NCBI GenBank assembly: GCA_028681135.1
Contig: JAQUJC010000004.1
Location: forward strand, 8,107-72,106
Origin: Kiritimatiellia bacterium
GTDB lineage: Bacteria > Verrucomicrobiota > Kiritimatiellia > CAIQIC01 > Lenti-01
Reading direction: 5' to 3'
DNA length: 64,000 nucleotides
In this document: positions 8,720-63,575 of the stretch, piece after piece
How positions within the stretch are numbered: the first letter of the stretch is position 1
How the letters are laid out: every line of letters starts with the position of its first letter
Made by a program: the position numbers and the translations under genes
The notes under the pieces: model-generated
The model's input: only the letters and a program-made list of their open reading frames with translations
What the model was told of the DNA's origin: nothing
Databases searched by the model: none

Positions 8720-8815
8720 GAGCTACTCCGCATCATGTATTACGTAATACATACTACCGGGTCAGCCGTCAAGCCCCTTTCCAATAATTAGAGTCTTGGG
8801 TCTCCCATTGCGCGG

Positions 8816-8927
8816 TTTTCCATAGCGTGGAAAAATCACGAAAAAGTTTTCCATAGCGTGGAAAATTCGCCCAAACGTTTTCCATAGCGTGGAAAAAACG
8901 CAAAAAAGTTTTCCATAGCGTGGAAAA
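8816..8927. promoter_or_regulatory. Array of four identical 19-bp palindromes (TTTTCCATAGCGTGGAAAA) at an exact 31-bp period, lying in the divergent PadR / Ser-Thr-kinase intergenic region. It is a putative multi-site operator.
   Basis: The units start at 8816, 8847, 8878 and 8909. The palindrome is perfectly conserved while the 12-bp A-rich spacers diverge. The 31-bp period is about three helical turns. Confidence 0.7.
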
Positions 8928-9093
8928 CCGGCGCGATACCAAGGGGCCCATGAGACCGTCTGAAAGGGCTACGGGCCGACCCCTTTCCTCCAGGCCCCCA
9001 GTCCTTATTCATCGCCCTGATTCAGGATTTAGTTCCATCGCAATGCAATTTAGCAGTTTGCTTTCCTGTGCGTTTGAAGCAAAATGGCGCTTT

Positions 9094-11394
9094 ATGGAAA
9101 CTGACACTCGGTCATCTGCTCACCCCGACCTTCCGGGCTATGAGATTCAGCAGCGTCTGGGCACTGGGGGTACGGCCACGGTCTGGCTGGCCCGACAGAT
9201 ATCCCTTGATCGCGTCGTGGCCATCAAGGTGCTGTCCCCCAAACTGCTAACCGACCAGGACGCCCGAACTCAATTCCAGGAAGAAGCGCGCGCGGCCGCC
9301 AAAATTTCGCAAGCGGCCATTGTCAGTATTCTGGATTTTGGGGAACACGACGGCCGCCTGTACTATGTCATGGAATATGTGGCCGGCACCAACCTCGCCG
9401 AATGGATACAGCAAAATCAGCGCATGGCCCACGGCCAGGTGCTCAAACTCGCTGAGATCATCGCCAACGCGCTCGACGCGGTGTGGCGCGAGACCTCCCT
9501 GATCCACTGCGACATCAAACCCGGCAACATCTTGCTCGGTGCCGATGGGGCGGTCAAGCTGACCGACCTGGGACTCGCCCGCATTGCCGGCTCCGCCGCC
9601 ACCCGCAGCGTCTCCGAAAATATTGAGGGGACCCCCTCGTACATTGCGCCCGAACAAATCGAAGGCCTCGAGCCCGACTGTCGCTCCGACATCTATTCGC
9701 TGGGCCTCAGCCTCTACCATCTTCTTACCGGCAACCCGCCCTTTGCCGATCGTGCCCTTCAGGATATTCTCGACGCCCAACAATCCGATTATCTCCCCGA
9801 TCCCTGCGACCTACTGCCGCGCCTGCCGGTCTCCTACGGGTGGTTATTGGCCAAAATGACCGCCAAAAACCCCGCCAAACGCCCGCAAAATTGGAGCGAA
9901 GTGCTCAAGGACCTCCACCAGATCAAGACTGGCAAATCGCCCCTGCCGCCCTATCCCGGCGAAGACGAAAGCACTATCCTGCTCAATCCCCGCCATCGCC
10001 CCGCCGCGCGCGCCAATACCATCAACCTATCCGCCGCCGGCAAAAAGGCCATCACGGTCTCCGCGTCCCACAACGCCCTCATCAGCCAACAGAAGCGCGG
10101 CTCTGCTTCCGCGCGGGCATCTTCCGGCGGGGGCTGTCTCCGCTTCCTGTTCTTTTTGATATTTTTGGCTGCCGTTCTGGGGGGCATCTGGCTATTGGCC
10201 TTCAGGAACCACCCCGAGCGCGTGGCGCAGCTAAAGGCCGTCCTCCAAGGCCACCCCCCACCCCCCCCCGCCCAGGCACCCGAACTGCAGCAACGCGACT
10301 CTGACCCGCCCCCCCCCGCTCCCGCGCCGGTCGAGTCGGTCGAGGAGGGGCCAGCCGCGGAACCCGAATCGTTGTCCGCCAGTACCGGCACCGTCACCCC
10401 CGGTGCCTGGAACCATCCCGGGTTCATCCAGGCCGCCAATCTCTTCAACGAAACTCTCACCCAATATCAGCAGCACCTGAAAAAGCCCGATCCCGCCAAT
10501 CCGGCCCTGCCTGGTCTGATCGCCGATGCCCAATATGCGGCCTTGCTGTTTGAAACCATCCGCGCCGACGCCCCCGACTCCGTGCCCGTCACCCACTATG
10601 CCAACCAGTGCTATCAACTGGTCAACGATCTGCGCCGCGCGCGCATGACGCTGGATGCCAAGCGCAATCGGCATGATCTGGCCCCCAAAAAACGTCATCC
10701 CGAGCTAGCCCCCTACCCCCTCCCCGAGGGTGACTCCACCGACCCCTTTGCGATGCACCACGGGCAATACGGCTATGCCTGGGATACCCTGCCCGCCCCG
10801 ATTGATCGTCCGGAGACGACCGAATTTATTTTGCTGCTCTCCGCCATTGCCACCCCCTCCCCCGACACCCGCATCCAATCCGGGTCGTATTTGCATGGCC
10901 CCTTGCGCGGCCTTGTGAGCCTGGAGGAGGCCCGTCGCCTCTTGAAGGTGCCCCCCGAACCCCGGACCCCCATCGAAGGCGCCCCCTTCCCCTATGGTGG
11001 ATTCTTCCAGACCACCTACCCCGCCAGCAAGCTCGGCTCCATCGGCCCCGGACAGCCGACCTATCCGCATATCCGGTTGATTACCGACGCAGAAGACCAA
11101 CTCGTCGCAGTTCAGCTCATTGATGAACACCCCGCCCCTCCCCTGCAAACGTCTCCGATGGCCTTTTCCACGGCCTCCCAGATCATGGACTTTGTCACCG
11201 GCCGCACGCTGCCCTCGAAGGGCGACATTCGCGCCCACCACAACACCCTGCGCGGCACCGGCACCTTACGCATTGACTCCGAAGTCGCCGATTTTGCCTC
11301 AGAATCCGATCCCACGCCAGTATTCCGCTCTGTGCTGCTGCTGCCCCAGCCCGTCGCCAACAATTTATTGTATCATCTGATGGGCACTCGCTAA
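9094..11394 (+). CDS. Hanks-type serine/threonine protein kinase. It has one TM helix and a ~380-aa C-terminal extracytoplasmic domain of unknown type.
   Basis: Kinase motifs are present: GTGGTATVW (glycine loop), AIK, HCDIKPGNILL, DLGLAR and GTPSYIAPE. A TM helix (LRFLFFLIFLAAVLGGIWLLAF) and a Pro-rich linker follow. The start is placed at the METDTR ATG (9094) because the track start at 8920 would lie inside the operator array. An alternative start is at 9042. Confidence 0.8.
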   Translation: METDTRSSAHPDLPGYEIQQRLGTGGTATVWLARQISLDRVVAIKVLSPKLLTDQDARTQFQEEARAAAKISQAAIVSILDFGEHDGRLYYVMEYVAGTNLAEWIQQNQRMAHGQVLKLAEIIANALDAVWRETSLIHCDIKPGNILLGADGAVKLTDLGLARIAGSAATRSVSENIEGTPSYIAPEQIEGLEPDCRSDIYSLGLSLYHLLTGNPPFADRALQDILDAQQSDYLPDPCDLLPRLPVSYGWLLAKMTAKNPAKRPQNWSEVLKDLHQIKTGKSPLPPYPGEDESTILLNPRHRPAARANTINLSAAGKKAITVSASHNALISQQKRGSASARASSGGGCLRFLFFLIFLAAVLGGIWLLAFRNHPERVAQLKAVLQGHPPPPPAQAPELQQRDSDPPPPAPAPVESVEEGPAAEPESLSASTGTVTPGAWNHPGFIQAANLFNETLTQYQQHLKKPDPANPALPGLIADAQYAALLFETIRADAPDSVPVTHYANQCYQLVNDLRRARMTLDAKRNRHDLAPKKRHPELAPYPLPEGDSTDPFAMHHGQYGYAWDTLPAPIDRPETTEFILLLSAIATPSPDTRIQSGSYLHGPLRGLVSLEEARRLLKVPPEPRTPIEGAPFPYGGFFQTTYPASKLGSIGPGQPTYPHIRLITDAEDQLVAVQLIDEHPAPPLQTSPMAFSTASQIMDFVTGRTLPSKGDIRAHHNTLRGTGTLRIDSEVADFASESDPTPVFRSVLLLPQPVANNLLYHLMGTR

Positions 11395-12135: not shown

Positions 12136-12654
12136 CGGTCGTCGGGACTGGCAGGGGTGCGATTGGATATTGATTTGATGACGCAGCACAAATGGCCATG
12201 CCGCCATTACGGTCTTTCCCTTTGAACCGGGACCGGGAAGGGTATCAGACAGCTACGGATTTCGCGGATGAAAAATGGGGGGACCAGACCGGGACGGGGT
12301 CGTCCCGGCTCCATTCCAATCGTTTTTGGAGCCCCTGACGACCTCGTCGGAGGATGATCCCGGACGGCATGCGGCTCCGCCATCGCCGACAGGCTGTCCC
12401 TCACAAAATCGTATTTGTGTCCATCGGTGTTCATTCGTGGTTGGGTTGTCCCCCCCCCTTCCAGTCATGGTGAGCGCAGTCGAACCATCGCGGAGATTCC
12501 TCGACCGGCTCCATGCTATGGAAACCCCGGCTCTCGTAGCGTGGACCTCCCGGTCCGCGCCTCTTCCCGTTCCGTTGCGCGGCTTCTTCTGTTCGGCGCG
12601 GACCAGTGGTCCATGCTACGGGGAGCCCCTTCCCTGTTTTCATATAATCCATAT

Positions 12655-12760
12655 GACTGCCCATCCACCGGGCTTGTACCGGTGTGCTTAAGGTTGTGCA
12701 GCCATAATAACTGCCCCGCCAACCTAACCATCCCCGGGACAAGCCCGGGGGATTTTCCCA
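12655..12760. repeat. Dispersed structured element, family B, copy 1. Two copies of the hairpin CCGGGCTTGT(A/C)CCGG in opposite orientation bracket a conserved ~50-nt loop.
   Basis: The copy is near-identical to the one at 50208..50310. It reads gactgcc(c/t)atccaccgggcttgt(a/c)ccggtgtgcttaagg...aaccatcccc(g)gGacaagcccggggg. The outer stems are mutually complementary over ~15 nt. Confidence 0.6.
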
Positions 12761-12899
12761 ATCCTGCACAATCCTGTTAATTGCCACTCCGTTCGCAACG
12801 CTCACTCGTTCGCTCCGTCAGCGGAGCGCTATAGACTTCGCGTTCGCCCTGCGTCCGGCTGGTGCCGGACTTGAGCTCGGCACTCAGCTATTCTGTCTA

Positions 12900-13070
12900 A
12901 ACTGGCTGCCCCCTTCCCTCCCCCTTTGCGTCTTCGCGTCTTTGCGTGAGACAGCTGTTTATTGAACGCGGGCAGGACGGAGCCTGCCCCTCCAGAAATC
13001 TCATTCGTGTGATTCGTAGTTTCTCTTCTCCGTTGTTCTTTCCTGAGTTCATGAGTTCAAATTCATTCCC
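12900..13070. repeat. Dispersed intergenic element, family A, copy 1 (gcgtctttgcgtgagac ... cattcgtgtNattNgtagt ... TTCCTGAGTTCATGAGTTCA(A/G)ATTCA).
   Basis: The same composite motif recurs at 46100..46260 and 50380..50545. A short variant sits at 50313..50337. Confidence 0.6.
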
Positions 13071-13087
13071 CTCTGGAAGTGGACAAA

Positions 13088-13120
13088 AAAACGCCGCGGA
13101 TTTCTCCGCGGCGAGTTTTC
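13088..13120 (-). terminator. Rho-independent terminator closing the ~19-kb minus-strand operon.
   Basis: The minus-strand RNA would read cgccgcggagaaauccgcggcg followed by UUUUUUU. This is a 9-bp GC stem with a 4-nt loop and a run of seven T residues. It lies 14 nt after the lipoprotein stop. Confidence 0.75.
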
Positions 13121-13133
13121 CGGCAGATGGATG

Positions 13134-33691: not shown

Positions 33692-33721
33692 GGGAAGTCA
33701 ATCGCAGACGCCACAGCGCGA

Positions 33722-34214
33722 AGATGGATACCTTTGGAGAATGCTTCGGGAAAGCAGGAAGGCCGGAAAAAGCAGTTTTGGGACCGATTTTGATGGTTTT
33801 TGGGGATGAAAATGCGCAAAATCGGACAAAACACCAGGAAAACCGCTCTTTTTAGCCCATTTTAGCCTCAATGGGGCAAAAATCTCTATTTTGAGCATAT
33901 TTCGCGCCGTTTTTTCCTGCAATGCCCGCCAGCGGGCTCTCTGCTGTGGAAAACGCCGACATAGACGCCCCTCCCCTTGTTCAATTTCCCTGTTCACACC
34001 TTGTCTCGGTTATTATTATATGTGAGACAAGCTGGAAATTGAGTTCACCTATCTACATGGTGGGCAGGATAATAGATGGCAGTCTCGGTTATTATTATAT
34101 GTGAGACTCGGGGGCTCATATGGCGATTGGGACACACGTTGCCCCGTCTATTTTGTTTGCGGTTCCAATCAGGTGATTATGGAATGAGTGTCTTGTTTCG
34201 GACGTCAGGCAGCT
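33722..34214. repeat. Copy 1 of a ~492-bp segmental direct repeat. It is upstream of the Wzm gene and downstream of the GT-C gene.
   Basis: It is ~97-99% identical to 35938..36428. It contains a ~150-bp low-GC tract and two 26-bp AT-rich palindromes. Confidence 0.85.
34003..34107. promoter_or_regulatory. Pair of 26-bp AT-rich palindrome-ended motifs (GTCTCGGTTATTATTATATGTGAGAC), 79 bp apart, inside repeat copy 1.
   Basis: The motifs sit at 34003-34028 and 34082-34107. The same pair recurs at 36217-36242 and 36296-36321. Each has GTCTC/GAGAC inverted ends around a 16-bp AT-only core, in a GC-rich genome. Confidence 0.55.
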
Positions 34215-35612: not shown

Positions 35613-35937
35613 GGCGGGATGTTTACCAAACTCGCGCCCCCCTGACCACGCGATTTTTGTAAGGGCTGGTGGTGGGTGGTCCGTGGTTTTGGAATTGCGC
35701 GCCCAATGACAACTTAGACAGTGTCCGCTCGAGCGGCCGGGCCCAGCGCAGACTGTTTGGAAATACACACGCAAAAACCAGGCTCTGCACGATAAAGTCG
35801 GCCTGGATCAGCATGCGCCATGCCCATGCCGGACACACTAGCCTGCATTATTCAGGCTAGGTGCGCCCCTGGGCGCGCCAGATCGGGGGCAAATCGTACA
35901 GCCGCCGCGCTCATCGAGCCCAGCACCATGGCCCGAA

Positions 35938-36428
35938 GACGGAAACCTTTGGAGAATGCTTCGGGAAAGCAGGAAGGCCGGAAAAAGCAGTTTTTGGGCC
36001 GATTTTGATGGTTTTTGGGGATGAAAATGCGTAAAATCGGACAAAACACCAGGAAAAACGCTCTTTTTAGCCCATTTTAGCCTCAATGGGGCAAAATCTC
36101 TATTTTGAGCATATTTCGCGCCGTTTTTTCCTGCGATGCCCGCCAGCGGGCTCTCTGCTGTGGAAAACCCCGACATAGACGCCCCTCCCCTTGTTTGATT
36201 TCCCTGTTCACACCTTGTCTCGGTTATTATTATATGTGAGACAAACTGGAAATTGAGTCCATTTATCTAACTGGTGGGCAAGATAATAGATGGCAGTCTC
36301 GGTTATTATTATATGTGAGACTCGGGGGCTCATATGGCGATTGGGACACACGTTGCCCCGTCTATTTTGTTTGCGGTTCCAATCAGGTGATTATGGGATG
36401 AGTGTCTTGTTTCGGACGTCAGGCAGCT
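35938..36428. repeat. Copy 2 of the ~492-bp segmental direct repeat, lying between the divergent GT-C and GT2 genes.
   Basis: See copy 1. It contains the palindromes at 36217-36242 and 36296-36321. Confidence 0.85.
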
Positions 36429-37929: not shown

Positions 37930-39063
37930 TCATGGGGTTGCCGTCTTTGGTGCTCCTTTCAGTCGATCATACAACCCGGCAAAGGCGGCCAGCACGGCAT
38001 CCGGCGCGTGGTGGTGCCGAACCTGTTCGCGCCCGTTGGAGCCCCAAATCGCGGCCGCGGCCGGCGTGTTCAGCATTTCGATCCAGACTGCTGCTAGGTC
38101 GGCAGCCGAAGCCGTCAACGGCAGTAGGCATCCCGTCTCGCCATCGCGCACCAGTTCGCGATTGCCGCCGCAATCGGTGGCCAGCACCGGCAAGCTCGCC
38201 GCCATATACTCCAGAATGGTGTTGGACAGCCCTTCGTTGCGGTTGGGTACCAGCGCGCCAACCTCGCACTGGCGCAGCAACGACGGCACGTCCAGCACCT
38301 CGCCCAAGAAACAGACGGCCTCCGCCACGCCCAAGGCGGCCGCTTGCGCGCGCAACGCCGGCAGTTCCCGCCCCTCCCCCGCGACGATTAGAACCGCCGC
38401 GGGCACCACCTGACGCACCTGCACCAGGGCGTCGATTAGCAACCCTGTATTTTTTTCGGGGTCCAGTCGATTCACCACCACCAGACGGCGGCCCGCCGGA
38501 AGCGCCGCCGCCGCCGAAAACGGTTCGCTCGCCCGGGCATCGAATTCGTCCAGGTCGACTAGATTAGGCCGTACCACGACTTTCTCTGCGGGCAAACCCT
38601 GGGCCAGAAAATGCTCCCGCACCGCTTCGGCATTGGCGACCACGCTAACGGCGGCCCGGTCGGCGCGACGCATCATGGCCAACTTCCATTTCGGATAAAT
38701 CTGTCCCAGATCGCGGCGGCTGGTCATGAACTTCACGTCTGCCCACTGCGCCGCAAACTGGCCAAAAATCGCCGCATCGGCATCCCACGCATGCAAAACA
38801 TCAATTTTTTCGTTGCGCAGCCAGGCGGCCAGCCGTCGGATCTCCCGCACCGTGGCCACCCGCGCCAAATGGCGGATGCGCACTTCATGCACCGGGCCGC
38901 AGGCGGCCTCGACCGCTTCGCGGAAGAAGCCCCGCTTATGAAACACCGCTACTCGGTGCGACAGCCCCCGCTGCGCCAGCCCCATGGCTACCCGTGCGCA
39001 TTGGCCTTCGGTTCCGCCGCGAATCAGATCAAAAACGAGATGGGCGACCTTGGGCGTGCTCAT
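37930..39063 (-). CDS. Family 4 glycosyltransferase (GT-B fold, glycosyl transferase group 1).
   Basis: The 377-aa product has an N-terminal HLVFDLIRGGTEGQ region and a C-terminal EGLSNTILEYMAASLPVLATD region with the E-x7-E-like GT4 pattern. Confidence 0.75.
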   Translation of the reverse strand: MSTPKVAHLVFDLIRGGTEGQCARVAMGLAQRGLSHRVAVFHKRGFFREAVEAACGPVHEVRIRHLARVATVREIRRLAAWLRNEKIDVLHAWDADAAIFGQFAAQWADVKFMTSRRDLGQIYPKWKLAMMRRADRAAVSVVANAEAVREHFLAQGLPAEKVVVRPNLVDLDEFDARASEPFSAAAALPAGRRLVVVNRLDPEKNTGLLIDALVQVRQVVPAAVLIVAGEGRELPALRAQAAALGVAEAVCFLGEVLDVPSLLRQCEVGALVPNRNEGLSNTILEYMAASLPVLATDCGGNRELVRDGETGCLLPLTASAADLAAVWIEMLNTPAAAAIWGSNGREQVRHHHAPDAVLAAFAGLYDRLKGAPKTATP

Positions 39064-39168
39064 GGGTGGCCCTTACTGAATGGCCGACGAGCAAAAACCG
39101 CCCGACGGGGTCGTCGGGTCTCCATGGAAAACAAAAACCACCGAATTGGAGCTGGAACAGCGGGACCT

Positions 39169-39619
39169 CGTGGCGGTCTTCGGCTCACCCGGAGGGTTCG
39201 CCCTACCTGGGGCAAAGTCCGGCTTTGGGTAGTGACGCCGCACTGTCGGTGTCCGTATAAATTGCCAACCTGACCGCCCGGTCGGCACGGAGGTCGCCCC
39301 TCTAGACCCCCTAATCTGTGTCCATTTGTGTTCATCCGTGGTTCACCTGTCCGAAACTGGAGCCGACACGATCCCGTGGCGGTCTTCGGCTCACCCGGAG
39401 GGTTCGCCCTACCTGGGGCAAAGTCCGGCTTTGGGTAGTGACGCCGCACCGTCGGTGTCCGTATAAATTGCCAACCTGACCGCCCGGTCGGCACGGAGGT
39501 CGCCCCTCTAGACCCCCTAATCTGTGTCCATTTGTGTTCATCCGTGGTTCACCTGTCCAAAACTGGAGCCGGCACGATCCCGTGGCGGTCTTCGGCTCAC
39601 CCGGAGGGTTCGCCCTACC
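39169..39619. repeat. Tandem repeat with a 206-bp unit. There are two near-identical full copies (39169-39374 and 39375-39580) and a ~39-bp partial third copy. Each unit contains a family-C hairpin arm (cggctcacccggagggttcgccctacc...gggtag).
   Basis: Landmarks cgtggcggtcttcgg sit at 39169, 39375 and 39581. Landmarks ctaatctgtg sit at 39311 and 39517. There are only ~3 mismatches between the full copies. A degenerate partial copy also precedes position 39169. Confidence 0.9.
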
Positions 39620-39662
39620 GCAGACAACATCTGGAACATTTGGAATTGCGTCAGAGGGATGT

Positions 39663-40892
39663 TCATTTCACCAACGGCTCCACTTCGCGCCACAGTTCTT
39701 CGGCTGCGAGGCGGATGCCCGCATCGTTCCAATGGGTGTCATCGCGCCAGTAGAGCCGCTGTCCCCGGGCTGTCGCCGCCTCAAAGACGGGCAGGAGATT
39801 CACAGTCGGGATGCCATTCGAGGTTAGCCCTGCGGTAATGGCGGCCAATAATTCTGGACCGCGTGCCAGGGCCTGCTGCTGTTCGAGCGGTAGCGCGCGC
39901 GCATGAATTTGTTCTTTTTCGGGAACCAGCAGAACTACCAAGGTTATGCCACGATCGCGCAGCCCCTCCGCCACGGAGGCCACGGTCTGCACGATGGGCG
40001 GGGCATCTGCTTCGGGCGTCAGCAGCGGCAACACGCGCAGGTTTTCCCCGTAAAACAGCATGGGCCCAAATTGGGGGTCGTCCGCCCCCAGTACGTCGCT
40101 CGGCCATTCCCGAAAGACCTGCCATTCGATGTGTCGCCAGGCCTGCCGTGCGGCATAGGCTGTCAACGAGGTATTGGGCCAGGCGTTGCGCAGCACGGCG
40201 GGAGCCAGATGATCCCATAAAATGCGCGAGGCTGCTGCGCTGGGCTGTGCATCCACGGCTAACGTTCGGTCAAACCAAGCCTGGACCGCCTGTCGCTGGA
40301 AAAGCGGCGCGCCCAATTCCCGCGCGGTCAGGTTCCACACCACGACTCGCGGCGGCGGATCAAAGCGGTCGGCCGCCAAAAATCGGCGCAGTTCCAAAAA
40401 GGGCCCCGAGCCACGACGGGCATGATTGTAAACGCCGATGTGTCCGATATCGGCCACGACCTGGGCCACCGTTTGTGTGCCCAGTGACACCATGAAGCTA
40501 TCGCCGACCATCAGGACCGAACACATCCCGGTCGCCATCGCGGACGAATTGACATAGCCCCAGGCATCAAACGGCAACACAATTTCCGGATGGAACTCCG
40601 CATAGCGGGCCGCGAGCGACGATCCCGGCAGCATCTGGGTCAACCCGGCTCCCGTCTGGGCCGGGATGAGTTGACTGCGTGCCGCCGCCGCCCCTGTGCC
40701 CACCGATGTCGCCGGGCGACCTGTCGGCAGCCACTGGTCTTGCCATCGAAATAGCCTCAGCCGCGCCACCCAATCACCGGCTACCATCAACAGCCAGGCC
40801 GTCAGCAAAATGCTCACCCACCCCCTCAGCCATCGGGGCCGCGCGGACTCAAATTCCGTCCGTAGGTCAGGTTGGGGGATGTGGTCGTTCAT
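39663..40892 (-). CDS. AlgX/AlgJ-like SGNH-hydrolase-fold protein, the periplasmic partner of an MBOAT O-acyltransferase. It is predicted to be a polysaccharide O-acetylation component.
   Basis: There is an N-terminal TM anchor. The C-terminal RDDTHWN motif is characteristic of AlgJ/AlgX. The gene begins 7 nt after the MBOAT stop. Confidence 0.6.
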   Translation of the reverse strand: MNDHIPQPDLRTEFESARPRWLRGWVSILLTAWLLMVAGDWVARLRLFRWQDQWLPTGRPATSVGTGAAAARSQLIPAQTGAGLTQMLPGSSLAARYAEFHPEIVLPFDAWGYVNSSAMATGMCSVLMVGDSFMVSLGTQTVAQVVADIGHIGVYNHARRGSGPFLELRRFLAADRFDPPPRVVVWNLTARELGAPLFQRQAVQAWFDRTLAVDAQPSAAASRILWDHLAPAVLRNAWPNTSLTAYAARQAWRHIEWQVFREWPSDVLGADDPQFGPMLFYGENLRVLPLLTPEADAPPIVQTVASVAEGLRDRGITLVVLLVPEKEQIHARALPLEQQQALARGPELLAAITAGLTSNGIPTVNLLPVFEAATARGQRLYWRDDTHWNDAGIRLAAEELWREVEPLVK

Positions 40893-49944: not shown

Positions 49945-50030
49945 CCCCGCTCAAGACTATAGTTATTGCAGTGTGTGTACTATAGATATTGCACTACATA
50001 TAGTATAGTTGTTGCAACAACTATAGTCTT
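49945..50030. promoter_or_regulatory. AT-rich nested inverted repeat (aagactatagttattgca ... tgcaacaactatagtctt) with five ACTATAG-like cores.
   Basis: The outer arms are complementary at 18 of 20 positions. The internal TACTATAGATAT / ATATAGTATAG arms are partly complementary. It is a roughly 30% GC island in a ~63% GC genome. Confidence 0.5.
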
Positions 50031-50085
50031 AGTTTTGAAAGACGCATCTGTGATTCAGTACAAGATTATTTGCCAGGCTCAAAGC

Positions 50086-50160
50086 TCGGCTCACCGAGGA
50101 CGGTTCGCCCTGCCGGGGGCGGGAATGCGCGTCATGGGTAGGGCGAATCGTCCCGATGAG
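50086..50160. repeat. Family-C long imperfect hairpin element (cggctcacc..ggttcgccct.cc ... gggtagggcgaa..gtccc.atgagccg).
   Basis: The arms are complementary with compensatory-like changes. Related copies sit at 39181-39235 and tandem, and at 63484-63575. Confidence 0.55.
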
Positions 50161-50207
50161 CCGCCCCTGAGGCCATGTTTTCATGATTTTCGCGATTTTC
50201 GCAGTTC

Positions 50208-58714: not shown

Positions 58715-59743
58715 ATGTCTCGTTGGATCATAACCTTGATTTGTCTGCTGGCCCTCGCGGCTAGCGCCTCTGCCCAAGTCGATGACCTGGATGCCCTGCT
58801 CGCAGGCCTGGGCGATGAACCCGTCGCGGAAGACGCTCTCGCCGAGGTGGAGCCCCCGGCTGATGCACCCGCGCCTAGTGCAGAGGTTGCGGAACCTGCC
58901 GTGGATGACCCCTTTGCTGACTTGCTCGGCGATATGCCCGCCGAAGACAGCGAACCGGCCGAGGCCCTTGACGAGCCCGTGGAAGATATCGCCGAAGAAC
59001 TGCCCGCTGACGTAACCGCCGATGACCCCTTTGCTGACTTGCTCGGTGATATGCCCGCCGAAGACAGCGAACCAGCCGAGGCCCTTGACGAGCCCGTGGA
59101 AGACATCGCCGAAGAACTGCCCGCTGACGTAACCGCCGATGATCCCTTTGCCGACTTGCTCGGTGATATGCCCGCCGAAGACAGCGAACCGGCCGAGGCC
59201 CTTGACGAGCCCGTGGAAGACATCGCCGAAGAACTGCCTGCTGACGTAACCGCCGATGACCCCTTTGCTGACTTGCTCGGCGATATGCCCGCTGACGAGC
59301 CTGCGGATGCCGAAGAGGTCGCCGAAGAACTCTTTCCTGAAGAAACCGTCTCGGAGGATATCGAGGAAGCCATCGAGGAAACCGATCCGCTTGCCGATCT
59401 GCTCGGGGATGAGTCTGCTGACACCGACGAGGCTATGGCTGGTGCTGAAGAAGCCACCCCCGAGATGGTCATCGATGAAGAAACCGCCCCTGAGGTAGTC
59501 GTCGAGGAAGAGGCCATCGAAGAGGAAGCGGCTCCTGAGGTCATCGATGAAGAAGAGGCCATTGAAGAGGACGCTGCCCCTGACGTAGCCATCGAAGAAG
59601 CCGACGCCGAGGACGAGGTTGTTCAAGAAGCAGCGGAAGTCGAAGAAGCCAAGGACAAGAAGGACACCCAAAAGCCCAAGCGTAAGCTCAAGCCCAAGGT
59701 TGCCGACAAGTCCCCCGAGTGGAACGATCCCGTTAGTTGGTAG
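58715..59743 (+). CDS. Secreted, highly acidic tandem-repeat protein (342 aa).
   Basis: A Shine-Dalgarno AAAGGAG precedes the ATG. The signal peptide is MSRWIITLICLLALAASASAQ. There are three exact 39-aa repeats (DDPFADLLGDMPAEDSEPAEALDEPVEDIAEELPADVTA) and then a Glu-rich tail ending in a basic KKDTQKPKRKLKPK segment. The opposite-strand ORFs at 58510..59592 and 58676..59752 are rejected. Confidence 0.7.
   Translation: MSRWIITLICLLALAASASAQVDDLDALLAGLGDEPVAEDALAEVEPPADAPAPSAEVAEPAVDDPFADLLGDMPAEDSEPAEALDEPVEDIAEELPADVTADDPFADLLGDMPAEDSEPAEALDEPVEDIAEELPADVTADDPFADLLGDMPAEDSEPAEALDEPVEDIAEELPADVTADDPFADLLGDMPADEPADAEEVAEELFPEETVSEDIEEAIEETDPLADLLGDESADTDEAMAGAEEATPEMVIDEETAPEVVVEEEAIEEEAAPEVIDEEEAIEEDAAPDVAIEEADAEDEVVQEAAEVEEAKDKKDTQKPKRKLKPKVADKSPEWNDPVSW
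58904..59290 (+). repeat. 117-bp coding tandem repeat, three perfect copies plus a partial diverged fourth.
   Basis: Units begin at 58904, 59021 and 59138. They differ only at synonymous positions. Confidence 0.9.
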
Positions 59744-63483: not shown

Positions 63484-63575
63484 GCGGCTCACCCAGAGGG
63501 TTCGCCCTACCAAAAGCTTGCGATTCTGGCTTTGGGTAGGGCGAGGCGTCCCTGCCGAGCCGGGCTGTTTTGCTC
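63484..63575. terminator. Family-C long hairpin element between the convergent lysA and membrane-protein genes. It probably acts as a bidirectional terminator.
   Basis: The left arm cggctcacccagagggttcgccctacc pairs with the right arm ggtagggcgaggcgtccctgccgagccg. The element is followed by gggctgttttgctcttt. Confidence 0.55.

Follow-up and report, generated by a model that had tools for sequence, protein, structure and literature searches.

A probable BIME-like REP cluster of varying unit number between two polysaccharide genes of a Kiritimatiellia bacterium

REPINs, reportedly introduced by Bertels and Rainey in 2011, are said to be inverted doublets of repetitive extragenic palindromic (REP) sequences that are mobilised by REP-associated tyrosine transposases (RAYTs). 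The GTAG-tagged REP families include GTAG-17 to GTAG-20 of the verrucomicrobium Opitutus terrae, and in GTAG REP clusters the dimers can be tandemly reiterated together with flanking DNA (Di Nocera, De Gregorio and Rocco 2013, PMC3733652). In the yjdMN operon of E. coli, the tandem REP cluster REP325 is described as a partial terminator and mRNA stabiliser (bioRxiv 10.64898/2026.03.23.713779; PMC4550694). Here we analyse an array of 206-nt units from a Kiritimatiellia bacterium (assembly GCA_028681135.1, contig JAQUJC010000004.1, positions 8,107 to 72,106 of the forward strand; this whole stretch of 64,000 nt is called the window, and coordinates are counted from its first letter). The array lies between an upstream AlgX-like gene and a downstream glycosyltransferase family 4 (GT4) gene. 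It has the mosaic structure of a REP cluster, it sits between two genes that formerly overlapped, and the number of its units varies between assemblies. The reading that we favour, with a probability of about 65%, is that of a bacterial interspersed mosaic element (BIME)-like REP cluster that was tandemly amplified inside a Kiritimatiellia polysaccharide operon, is resized by recombination or slippage, and probably tunes read-through into the GT4 gene. A first-pass annotation of this DNA had called such a duplication unusual, a description that is not supported, as tandem reiteration of REP dimers with flanking DNA is already on record for GTAG REP clusters (PMC3733652).

Extent and anatomy of the array

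Tandem Repeats Finder reported a single long-period array in the window, at 39169-39619, with a period of 206 nt, 2.2 copies, 98% matches, no indels and a score of 881. A second repeat search aligned 39164-39369 with 39370-39575, likewise at 98%, and placed a further, partial copy (59 nt) at 39576-39634. Between the two full units there are five differences, two at the left edge and three internal. The first-pass description of a 206-bp repeat in 2.2 copies is therefore accurate except in its identity of ~99%, which was measured as ~98%. Its gene boundaries, with the GT4 start at 39063 and the AlgX-like stop at 39663, were reproduced from the open reading frame (ORF) list and Pfam, both genes lying on the minus strand with 599 nt between them, and its view of the repeat as non-coding, with a dispersed hairpin arm in each unit, was borne out. 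The family-C motif that it had placed in each unit has three copies in the array and two beyond it, at 2883 and 63486, with none expected by chance, and the segment GTGTCCAT...GTGTTCATCCGTGGTT, said to recur in diverged form, indeed has a diverged copy at ~12415-12442.

On the minus strand each unit reads REP-C (26 nt), linker g (40 nt), B arm (35 nt), linker D+c+d (59 nt), REP' (26 nt) and spacer (20 nt). A 72-nt tail-to-tail heterodimer, its GTAG tags facing each other, is made up of REP', the spacer and the REP-C that follows. In the lineage of the window the array carries REP-C at both ends, in the order C-X-C-X-C, and a block of REP-C plus 13 nt bounds every unit. The features of the array are listed below, followed by those of its flanks.

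39169..39619, minus strand: tandem array, 2.2 x 206 nt (Tandem Repeats Finder, repeat search, sequence)
39182..39207, minus strand: REP-C copy 1, nearest GT4, GGTAG GGC GA ACCC TCC GGGT GA GCC; the minimum free energy fold is the proposed hairpin
39388..39413, minus strand: REP-C copy 2 (motif search)
39594..39619, minus strand: REP-C copy 3, nearest the AlgX-like stop and forming the array end (motif search)
39208..39227, second copy 39414-39433, unstranded: 20-nt spacer inside the tail-to-tail REP dimer; holds a CAAAG/CTTTG mini-hairpin (sequence, fold)
39228..39253, second copy 39434-39459, plus strand: REP', a GTAG-tagged hairpin with a 7-bp stem, GGTAG T GACGCCG CACYGT CGGTGTC (sequence, fold)
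39254..39312, second copy 39460-39518, unstranded: linker D+c+d, with small palindromes GAGG..CCTC and GACCG..CGGTC (sequence)
39313..39347, second copy 39519-39553, minus strand: B arm GGTGAACCACGGATGAACACAAATGGACACAGATT, with 10-nt periodicity (sequence)
39348..39387, second copy 39554-39593, unstranded: linker g, from the B arm to the next REP-C (sequence, alignment)
39140..39181, unstranded: degenerate copy of linker g forming the array edge towards GT4 (sequence and alignment tails of window unit 2 and L001 unit 1)
39092..39118, minus strand: terminator-like hairpin CCCGACGACCCCGTCGGG followed by CGGTTTTTGC, outside the array and 29 nt upstream of the GT4 ATG (promoter/terminator scan)
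39620..39666, minus strand: short unique spacer and the AlgX-like stop within ATGA, a relic of an ancestral stop/start overlap with GT4, compare L147-L149 (sequence)
37930..39063, minus strand: GT4 glycosyltransferase gene, downstream of the array (Pfam Glycos_transf_1, Glyco_transf_4)
39663..40892, minus strand: AlgX-like SGNH O-acetyltransferase gene, upstream of the array (Pfam ALGX domain)

The last 13 nt of the edge copy at 39140-39181 are still the same as in the internal copies of linker g, and by its sequence this stretch, of which the first-pass annotation had counted 39140-39168 as part of the repeat, is a decayed linker g and so an old edge unit. The terminator-like hairpin at 39118-39092 (minus strand) has one stem pair broken in L119, a relative with a 99% identical GT4. 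Further upstream of the AlgX-like gene, Pfam identifies MBOAT and Wzy_C genes.

The clustering in tandem of REPs and other conserved motifs within an intergenic region is that of BIMEs and REP clusters, and the modules of the unit differ in how widely they occur elsewhere. By BLAST against ~0.8 Mb of loci from the Planctomycetes-Verrucomicrobia-Chlamydiae (PVC) superphylum, the intergenic region had no match outside a 27-nt REP core, and sliding 16-mers compared with the sampled PVC DNA picked up, beyond this core, no more than one further family, a weak one at the B arm. No dispersed copies of REP' or of the dimer spacer were found in the PVC DNA sampled. The B arm holds four 10-nt sub-repeats and is one arm of a dispersed repeat that forms inverted pairs at other loci; each array unit carries one arm only. 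A metagenome scan with the conserved B core matched 13 unrelated loci, indicating that B is a dispersed repeat and not a marker of the AlgX-GT4 locus. At many of these 13 loci, and also at L019, B forms an inverted pair around 20-150 nt, like the terminal repeat of a small element resembling a miniature inverted-repeat transposable element (MITE). A diverged D-B composite is found at ~12380-12445 of the window, within a 1-kb gene-free stretch between convergent ORFs (12136-13133) that is dense in short dispersed repeat families.

The REP-C hairpin family

Read from its GTAG end, REP-C pairs GGC with GCC, continues through a tandem G-A/A-G internal loop and ends in a 4-bp inner stem closed by TCC or TCCC. 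Its length of 26-27 nt places it among the short (20-40 nt) stem-loops of the GTAG REP superfamily. An exact scan with the pattern GGCTCACCNNGANGGTTCGCCCTACC, taking one genome per species, gave more than 117 loci among the matches listed, including L002-L118. The named taxa among these matches are Verrucomicrobiota (Opitutia, Verrucomicrobiales, Akkermansiaceae, Spartobacteria and Terrimicrobiaceae), Kiritimatiellia and metagenome-assembled genomes (MAGs) of Lentisphaerae/Victivallales, the remainder being labelled "bacterium" or "uncultured bacterium". The closest relative of the window among the REP-C matches listed is a Kiritimatiellia MAG with 79.7% identity over 5.2 kb, and the GT4 homologues are named Kiritimatiellia proteins by NCBI. 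The REP-C 26-mer had no match in 2.9 million viral contigs, and the dimer spacer likewise had none in viral contigs. REP-C (GGTAGGGCGA-stem-loop-stem-GAGCC) is identical across MAGs of Verrucomicrobiota, Kiritimatiellia and Lentisphaerae, with sites in the window at 2844-2907, 39182-39619, 50088-50162 and 63486-63561. REP families are usually species- or genus-specific, which makes this three-phylum breadth unusual. Among the by-products of the analysis, the identical 26-mer in all three phyla is the most unusual.

The hairpin is preserved by paired changes. A pairing-agnostic pattern, GGTAG N3 GA N4 N3-4 N4 GA N3, found 208 sites, 191 of which pair at all seven of seven positions; this is the unbiased count, as the 100% paired figure of the covariation count is circular, its rows having been pre-selected as fully paired. 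More than 10 complementary inner stems occur, for example ACCG/CGGT, ACCC/GGGT, GGCG/CGCC, AGCC/GGCT, ATCC/GGAT and GTCG/CGAC. Double changes are seen at three of the seven stem pairs (22 cells), a signal that collapses in controls with slid partners. The REP inner stem covaries, forming sub-families whose stem changes are complementary. As for the unpaired tag, among 82 hairpin bodies unselected by pattern, 56 are preceded by GGTAG, 4 by GGCAG and 3 by GGTGG. When placed against stop-free frames of at least 150 aa (frames, not gene calls), 62% of REP sites fall inside, compared with 92% of random 26-mers.

The 64 kb of the window hold nine REP-C copies, three of them head-to-tail in the array and six as three inverted dimers found by the related-arm search:

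2844/2883: REP-C dimer, head-head
50088/50138: REP-C dimer, tail-tail
63486/63536: REP-C dimer, tail-tail

Further REP dimers are numerous in the matched loci, in keeping with the GTAG REP superfamily, in which head-head or tail-tail dimers with spacers of 1-100 nt are frequent. Beside the dimer at 50088/50138, at 49953-50040, lie AT-rich near-perfect palindromes with ACTATAGT cores and 39-nt arms without a gap. REP-bearing tandem arrays were found by repeat search in two other PVC MAGs, with a 281-nt unit in L024 and a ~225-nt unit in L065, both cut by contig ends; Tandem Repeats Finder on all matched loci gave no further long-period array with REP-C. Compared through the supplementary peptide list of PMC3733652, REP-C could be tied to no numbered GTAG family.

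A cognate transposase was sought among all the ORFs in the window and in 150 loci, using a hidden Markov model (HMM) built from published RAYT and TIRYT sequences. One match, in an Opitutia MAG (L021:6429-6926), is the single RAYT-like ORF of the sampled PVC DNA, a Y1 transposase (LMPDHWH ... YIRRNP) with a GTGG-tagged REP family, GGTGGAACGCATTGACCTCAATGCGTTC, on both sides. It is the REPtron of a family other than REP-C; the same GTGG-tagged family is also present in L024.

Unit number, history and surroundings of the locus

The first-pass suggestion that the repeat is a hotspot of copy-number variation is supported by the comparison of assemblies: those of one strain or of very close strains have 1.2, 2.2 and at least 3.2 units, and those of related species 0.5, 1.5, at least 2.3 and at least 3 units at this locus. 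The compared loci are as follows.

L001 (GCA_028704045.1), 100% identical over ~7.3 kb of flanks: 1.2 units (C-X-C), genes 393 nt apart
L119 (Joint Genome Institute, JGI, metagenome), GT4 99% identical: genes 914 nt apart, including an N scaffold gap, at least 3.2 units at 97%
L127, GT4 80% amino acid identity: at least 3 units, N gap
L129, GT4 75% amino acid identity: at least 2.3 units, contig end inside the array
L130, GT4 75% amino acid identity: 1.5 units
L131 and L132, GT4 75% amino acid identity: contigs start inside the array
L120-L124, GT4 83-87% identical: half a unit only (B+D+c), no REP
L150 and L151, GT4 73% identical: 165-nt spacer, truncated B
L147-L149, GT4 72% identical: no spacer, AlgX stop and GT4 start overlapping at ATGA

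All of these are apparently metagenome assemblies, several with breaks or N gaps inside the array, and contigs of this Kiritimatiellia lineage tend to break at the AlgX-GT4 locus. It is rather unlikely that the copy number of the window is an assembly artefact, with a loop threaded twice or two X strain alleles placed in series, so that the true structure is C-X-C or has some other number and the differences between assemblies reflect software. L001, with identical flanks, has 1.2 units; N gaps lie inside the array in L119 and L127; L127, L129, L131 and L132 end inside it; and X, bounded on both sides by REP-C plus 13 nt, makes a loop in a de Bruijn graph, from which ambiguity for the assembler would be expected. 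Against this, the three internal differences between the full units do not fit a simple loop traversed twice. In the independent L119 assembly the two unit variants of the window (A and G at the REP' loop position) stand side by side in uninterrupted sequence. The internal differences and the unit variants shared with L119 both favour the reality of at least two full units in this lineage. Six independent assemblies of different projects have 1.5 or more tandem units, and the tandem structure and the variation between species would stand even if the number were wrong. A lineage-specific 31-mer gave 0 metagenome matches in a collection that evidently lacks the JGI sample carrying the sequence.

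The history of the locus can be read from its ends. In the distant relatives L147-L149 the AlgX stop and GT4 start overlap at ATGA (~2501-2504), and the ATGAGC at the GT4 start of the window is homologous to this overlapped start. The 599-nt spacer of the window has ATGA on both sides (39663-39666 and 39060-39063), like a short duplication at an insertion site. The overlap in distant relatives and the ATGA kept in the window indicate that the spacer was inserted between two genes that had once been coupled; since then the array has grown and shrunk, and its junctions with the flanking DNA have changed. These junctions differ between lineages, and the junction that separates L001 from the window lies inside the REP-C block. 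In L120, L123, L124 and L130 the AlgX-like ORF lacks the ATGA stop and runs ~25 codons into the spacer, with TGA inside the B arm. The locus shows a tightly ATGA-coupled gene pair pried apart by REP-type repeats, followed by strain-wise expansion and contraction.

That the whole 206-nt unit is a mobile non-autonomous element, resembling a MITE or a short interspersed nuclear element (SINE) and inserted repeatedly at this site, seems very unlikely. ATGA on both sides of the spacer, in the window as in L151, resembles a target-site duplication, and the unit is better conserved than its flanks. However, apart from REP-C and B, no part of the unit recurs in the rest of the window or among ~0.8 Mb of PVC loci, the unit lacks the terminal inverted repeats of a MITE, and neighbouring units abut without duplicated target sequence. 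The B arm alone behaves like an inverted terminal repeat of short elements, at other loci.

Conservation was compared between the window and L127, L129 and L130. At the DNA level GT4 is 78-79% identical, with 59-60% at third codon positions, and the 3' end of AlgX is 82% identical (to L130). The 206-nt unit is 91-92% identical and the 72-nt REP dimer is identical at 71 of 72 positions between species. By module, the B arm matches at 34-35 of 35 positions, REP' at 25 of 26, the spacer at 20 of 20 and REP-C at 26 of 26. The linkers are 75-94% identical (D+c 36-37 of 43, d 12-15 of 16, g 26-27 of 33) and drift at about the rate of the flanking genes. The constancy of REP-C and B is the usual constancy of dispersed repeat families. 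Judged by these comparisons, the array predates the split of species whose GT4 genes share 78-79% of their DNA. The "recent duplication" of the first-pass annotation thus applies to the units within the array, which are young or homogenised, and not to the array itself.

The surroundings contain several other repeats. A ~460-nt direct repeat at 33711-34173 and 35926-36387 (95-96%), which takes up both intergenic regions upstream of the ABC-2 permease and GT87 genes of the same polysaccharide cluster, carries two GTCTCACATATAATAATAACCGAGAC hairpins and may be a duplicated leader or promoter region. At 8815-8927 a 31-nt unit is repeated 3.6 times, with inverted half-sites TTTTCCA/TGGAAAA, immediately upstream of an ORF at 8920..11394 (plus strand); it looks like an operator array, and a related sequence, TTTTCCATGGA, occurs in the GT4-proximal spacer at ~39125-39135. 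Another local family at 514-635 consists of a perfect tandem of two 28-nt units and then a 29-nt inverted repeat (97%), with a core GGGGTCAGCCC common to both. The 117-nt unit repeated 3.3 times (96%) at 58904-59292 is a coding tandem repeat in an acidic, repeat-rich ORF region and is unrelated to the REP array.

Possible functions and comparison with known systems

The first-pass annotation had also proposed that the repeat encodes tandem small RNAs or tandem terminators or promoters, which is not supported. Scanned for promoters and terminators, none of the units contained a promoter-like or terminator-like site, and Rfam gave nothing credible at gathering thresholds in the whole window or at E <=10 in 38950-39800; no tRNA or tmRNA was detected by the corresponding scan. 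The fold of the whole spacer is no better than that of shuffled sequence (z of -0.6 for the minus and -0.25 for the plus strand), and single REPs and the REP dimer give z of ~ -0.6 to -1.1. Applied to five orthologous units, RNAalifold predicted 51 pairs, none with a compensatory change, and gave an unfavourable covariation term; a divergence of 8-9% leaves this test little power. Since the scan, Rfam, fold and covariation tests are negative, tandem small RNA genes and per-unit promoters or terminators are unsupported. It is accordingly most improbable that each unit is a small RNA gene or structured RNA in the manner of the tandem NsiR1 or Qrr paralogues. The conservation of the units and the several hairpins in them would fit such a role, but neither the promoter and terminator per unit nor the conserved RNA structure of such arrays was found, and the conserved parts include the REP-C and B modules that also occur at unrelated loci. 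A coding array was considered and rejected: the ORFs through the array have no family match, and their frames shift from unit to unit because 206 is not a multiple of 3. ORFs called within the array are annotation artefacts, such as a 174-aa "gene" in L119 and the 42-codon N-terminal extension of GT4 in L130, where the gene is called into the array with 419 aa instead of 377 aa. Inspected by eye, no part of the unit fits the consensus of a sigma-54 promoter, an ops/JUMPStart element or DnaA boxes.

A selected cis-regulatory module or contingency locus, in which the B arm and REP dimer act as binding sites or RNA elements for GT4 and later genes and changes in the units switch or tune the surface polysaccharide, is unlikely. 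The near-invariance of B, REP', spacer and REP-C compared with neighbouring genes at 78-82% and third positions at 59-60% would fit such a role, as would the persistence of the array at one locus across several species, the gene content of the polysaccharide cluster varying between relatives, and the terminator-like hairpin just before the GT4 start. However, REP-C and B are constant at unrelated loci as well, so that conservation need not mean a local role, an argument from which REP' and the spacer are exempt. The close relatives L120-L124 have half a unit and no REP, L147-L149 have no spacer, the array-flank junctions depend on the lineage, and the scan found no promoter-like site. The constancy of REP' and the spacer is the chief ground for keeping a selected function in view.

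The favoured reading of a BIME-like, resizable REP cluster involves the following steps. Unit number would change through unequal homologous recombination or replication slippage from one direct repeat to another, the junctions in the lineage of the window falling in the block of REP-C plus 13 nt, with the array interior homogenised and its edges decaying. The array would be co-transcribed in an AlgX-to-GT4 message. By analogy with REP325, its hairpins may shield the upstream transcript against 3' decay and partly block transcription from entering GT4. Least certain, copy number might then shift upstream and downstream expression, more units giving less GT4 relative to the AlgX-like gene. If the REP325 model applies, the expression ratio of polysaccharide-modifying genes could vary without a change of promoter.

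Several points weigh against this reading. The REP-C copies of the array all lie on the minus strand, head-to-tail at a period of 206 nt, and most of the unit is non-REP. The alternating REP orientation with short linkers of E. coli BIME-1 and BIME-2 was not found here, orientation alternating only inside each REP'/REP-C dimer. Neither the hairpins nor the region as a whole folds with a better energy than shuffled sequences. No RAYT could be linked to REP-C in the window and 150 loci, the HMM having matched L021 and L143 only and nothing in the window. The near-invariance of REP', spacer and B arm is unaccounted for by neutral repeat turnover. Absolute copy numbers, including the 2.2 of the window, are insecure because metagenome assemblies break or are gapped in the array. 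The proposed co-transcription and the attenuator or stabiliser role are carried over by analogy.

A bolder proposal, which we regard as distinctly doubtful, would make the array a conserved, copy-number-tunable punctuation element within a surface-polysaccharide operon. REP-C is constant across three phyla (Verrucomicrobiota, Kiritimatiellota and Lentisphaerota), and its locus-specific partner hairpin and the spacer match at 45 of 46 positions between species with saturated synonymous sites. The gain and loss of units could then serve as a heritable dial or phase switch on the glycosyltransferase, and the constancy of REP-C would come from a conserved host factor and not from a lineage-specific transposase.

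Among known systems, variable-number tandem repeats and contingency loci share with this array the change of copy number in one-unit steps between close genomes and the position beside a surface-polysaccharide gene, whereas the unit here is far longer than classical contingency repeats and phase switching is only proposed. REPINs resemble it in that the 72-nt dimer of REP', spacer and REP-C is kept as a block (71 of 72), and in that the other REP-C copies of the window form inverted doublets. In contrast to REPINs, the arms of the dimer are of two hairpin types, no cognate RAYT was identified in the window and 150 loci, and REP-C is common to the PVC superphylum where REPINs are usually lineage-specific. 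The E. coli BIMEs and REP325 (yjdM-yjdN) are likewise tandem REP units between co-directional operon genes, with variation between strains. They differ in that the unit here is 206 nt long with about a third REP and with REP-C head-to-tail, and their function would extend to this locus by analogy. The GTAG REPs differ in that the peptides listed as REP-encoded in O. terrae are unlike those that REP-C would encode, in that the REP-C stem is split into 3 + 4 bp by the tandem G-A/A-G internal loop, and in that the REP-C 26-mer, common to three phyla, is broader than most families in PMC3733652. They agree with the array in their short stem-loops tagged by an unpaired GTAG, in sub-families whose stem changes are complementary, in dimers of head-head and tail-tail type, often heterodimers, with spacers of 20-100 nt, in tandem clusters of a dimer with its flanking DNA, and in a presence in PVC bacteria. 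The array is therefore best classed as a GTAG-REP, BIME-like tandem cluster, a known type of structure.

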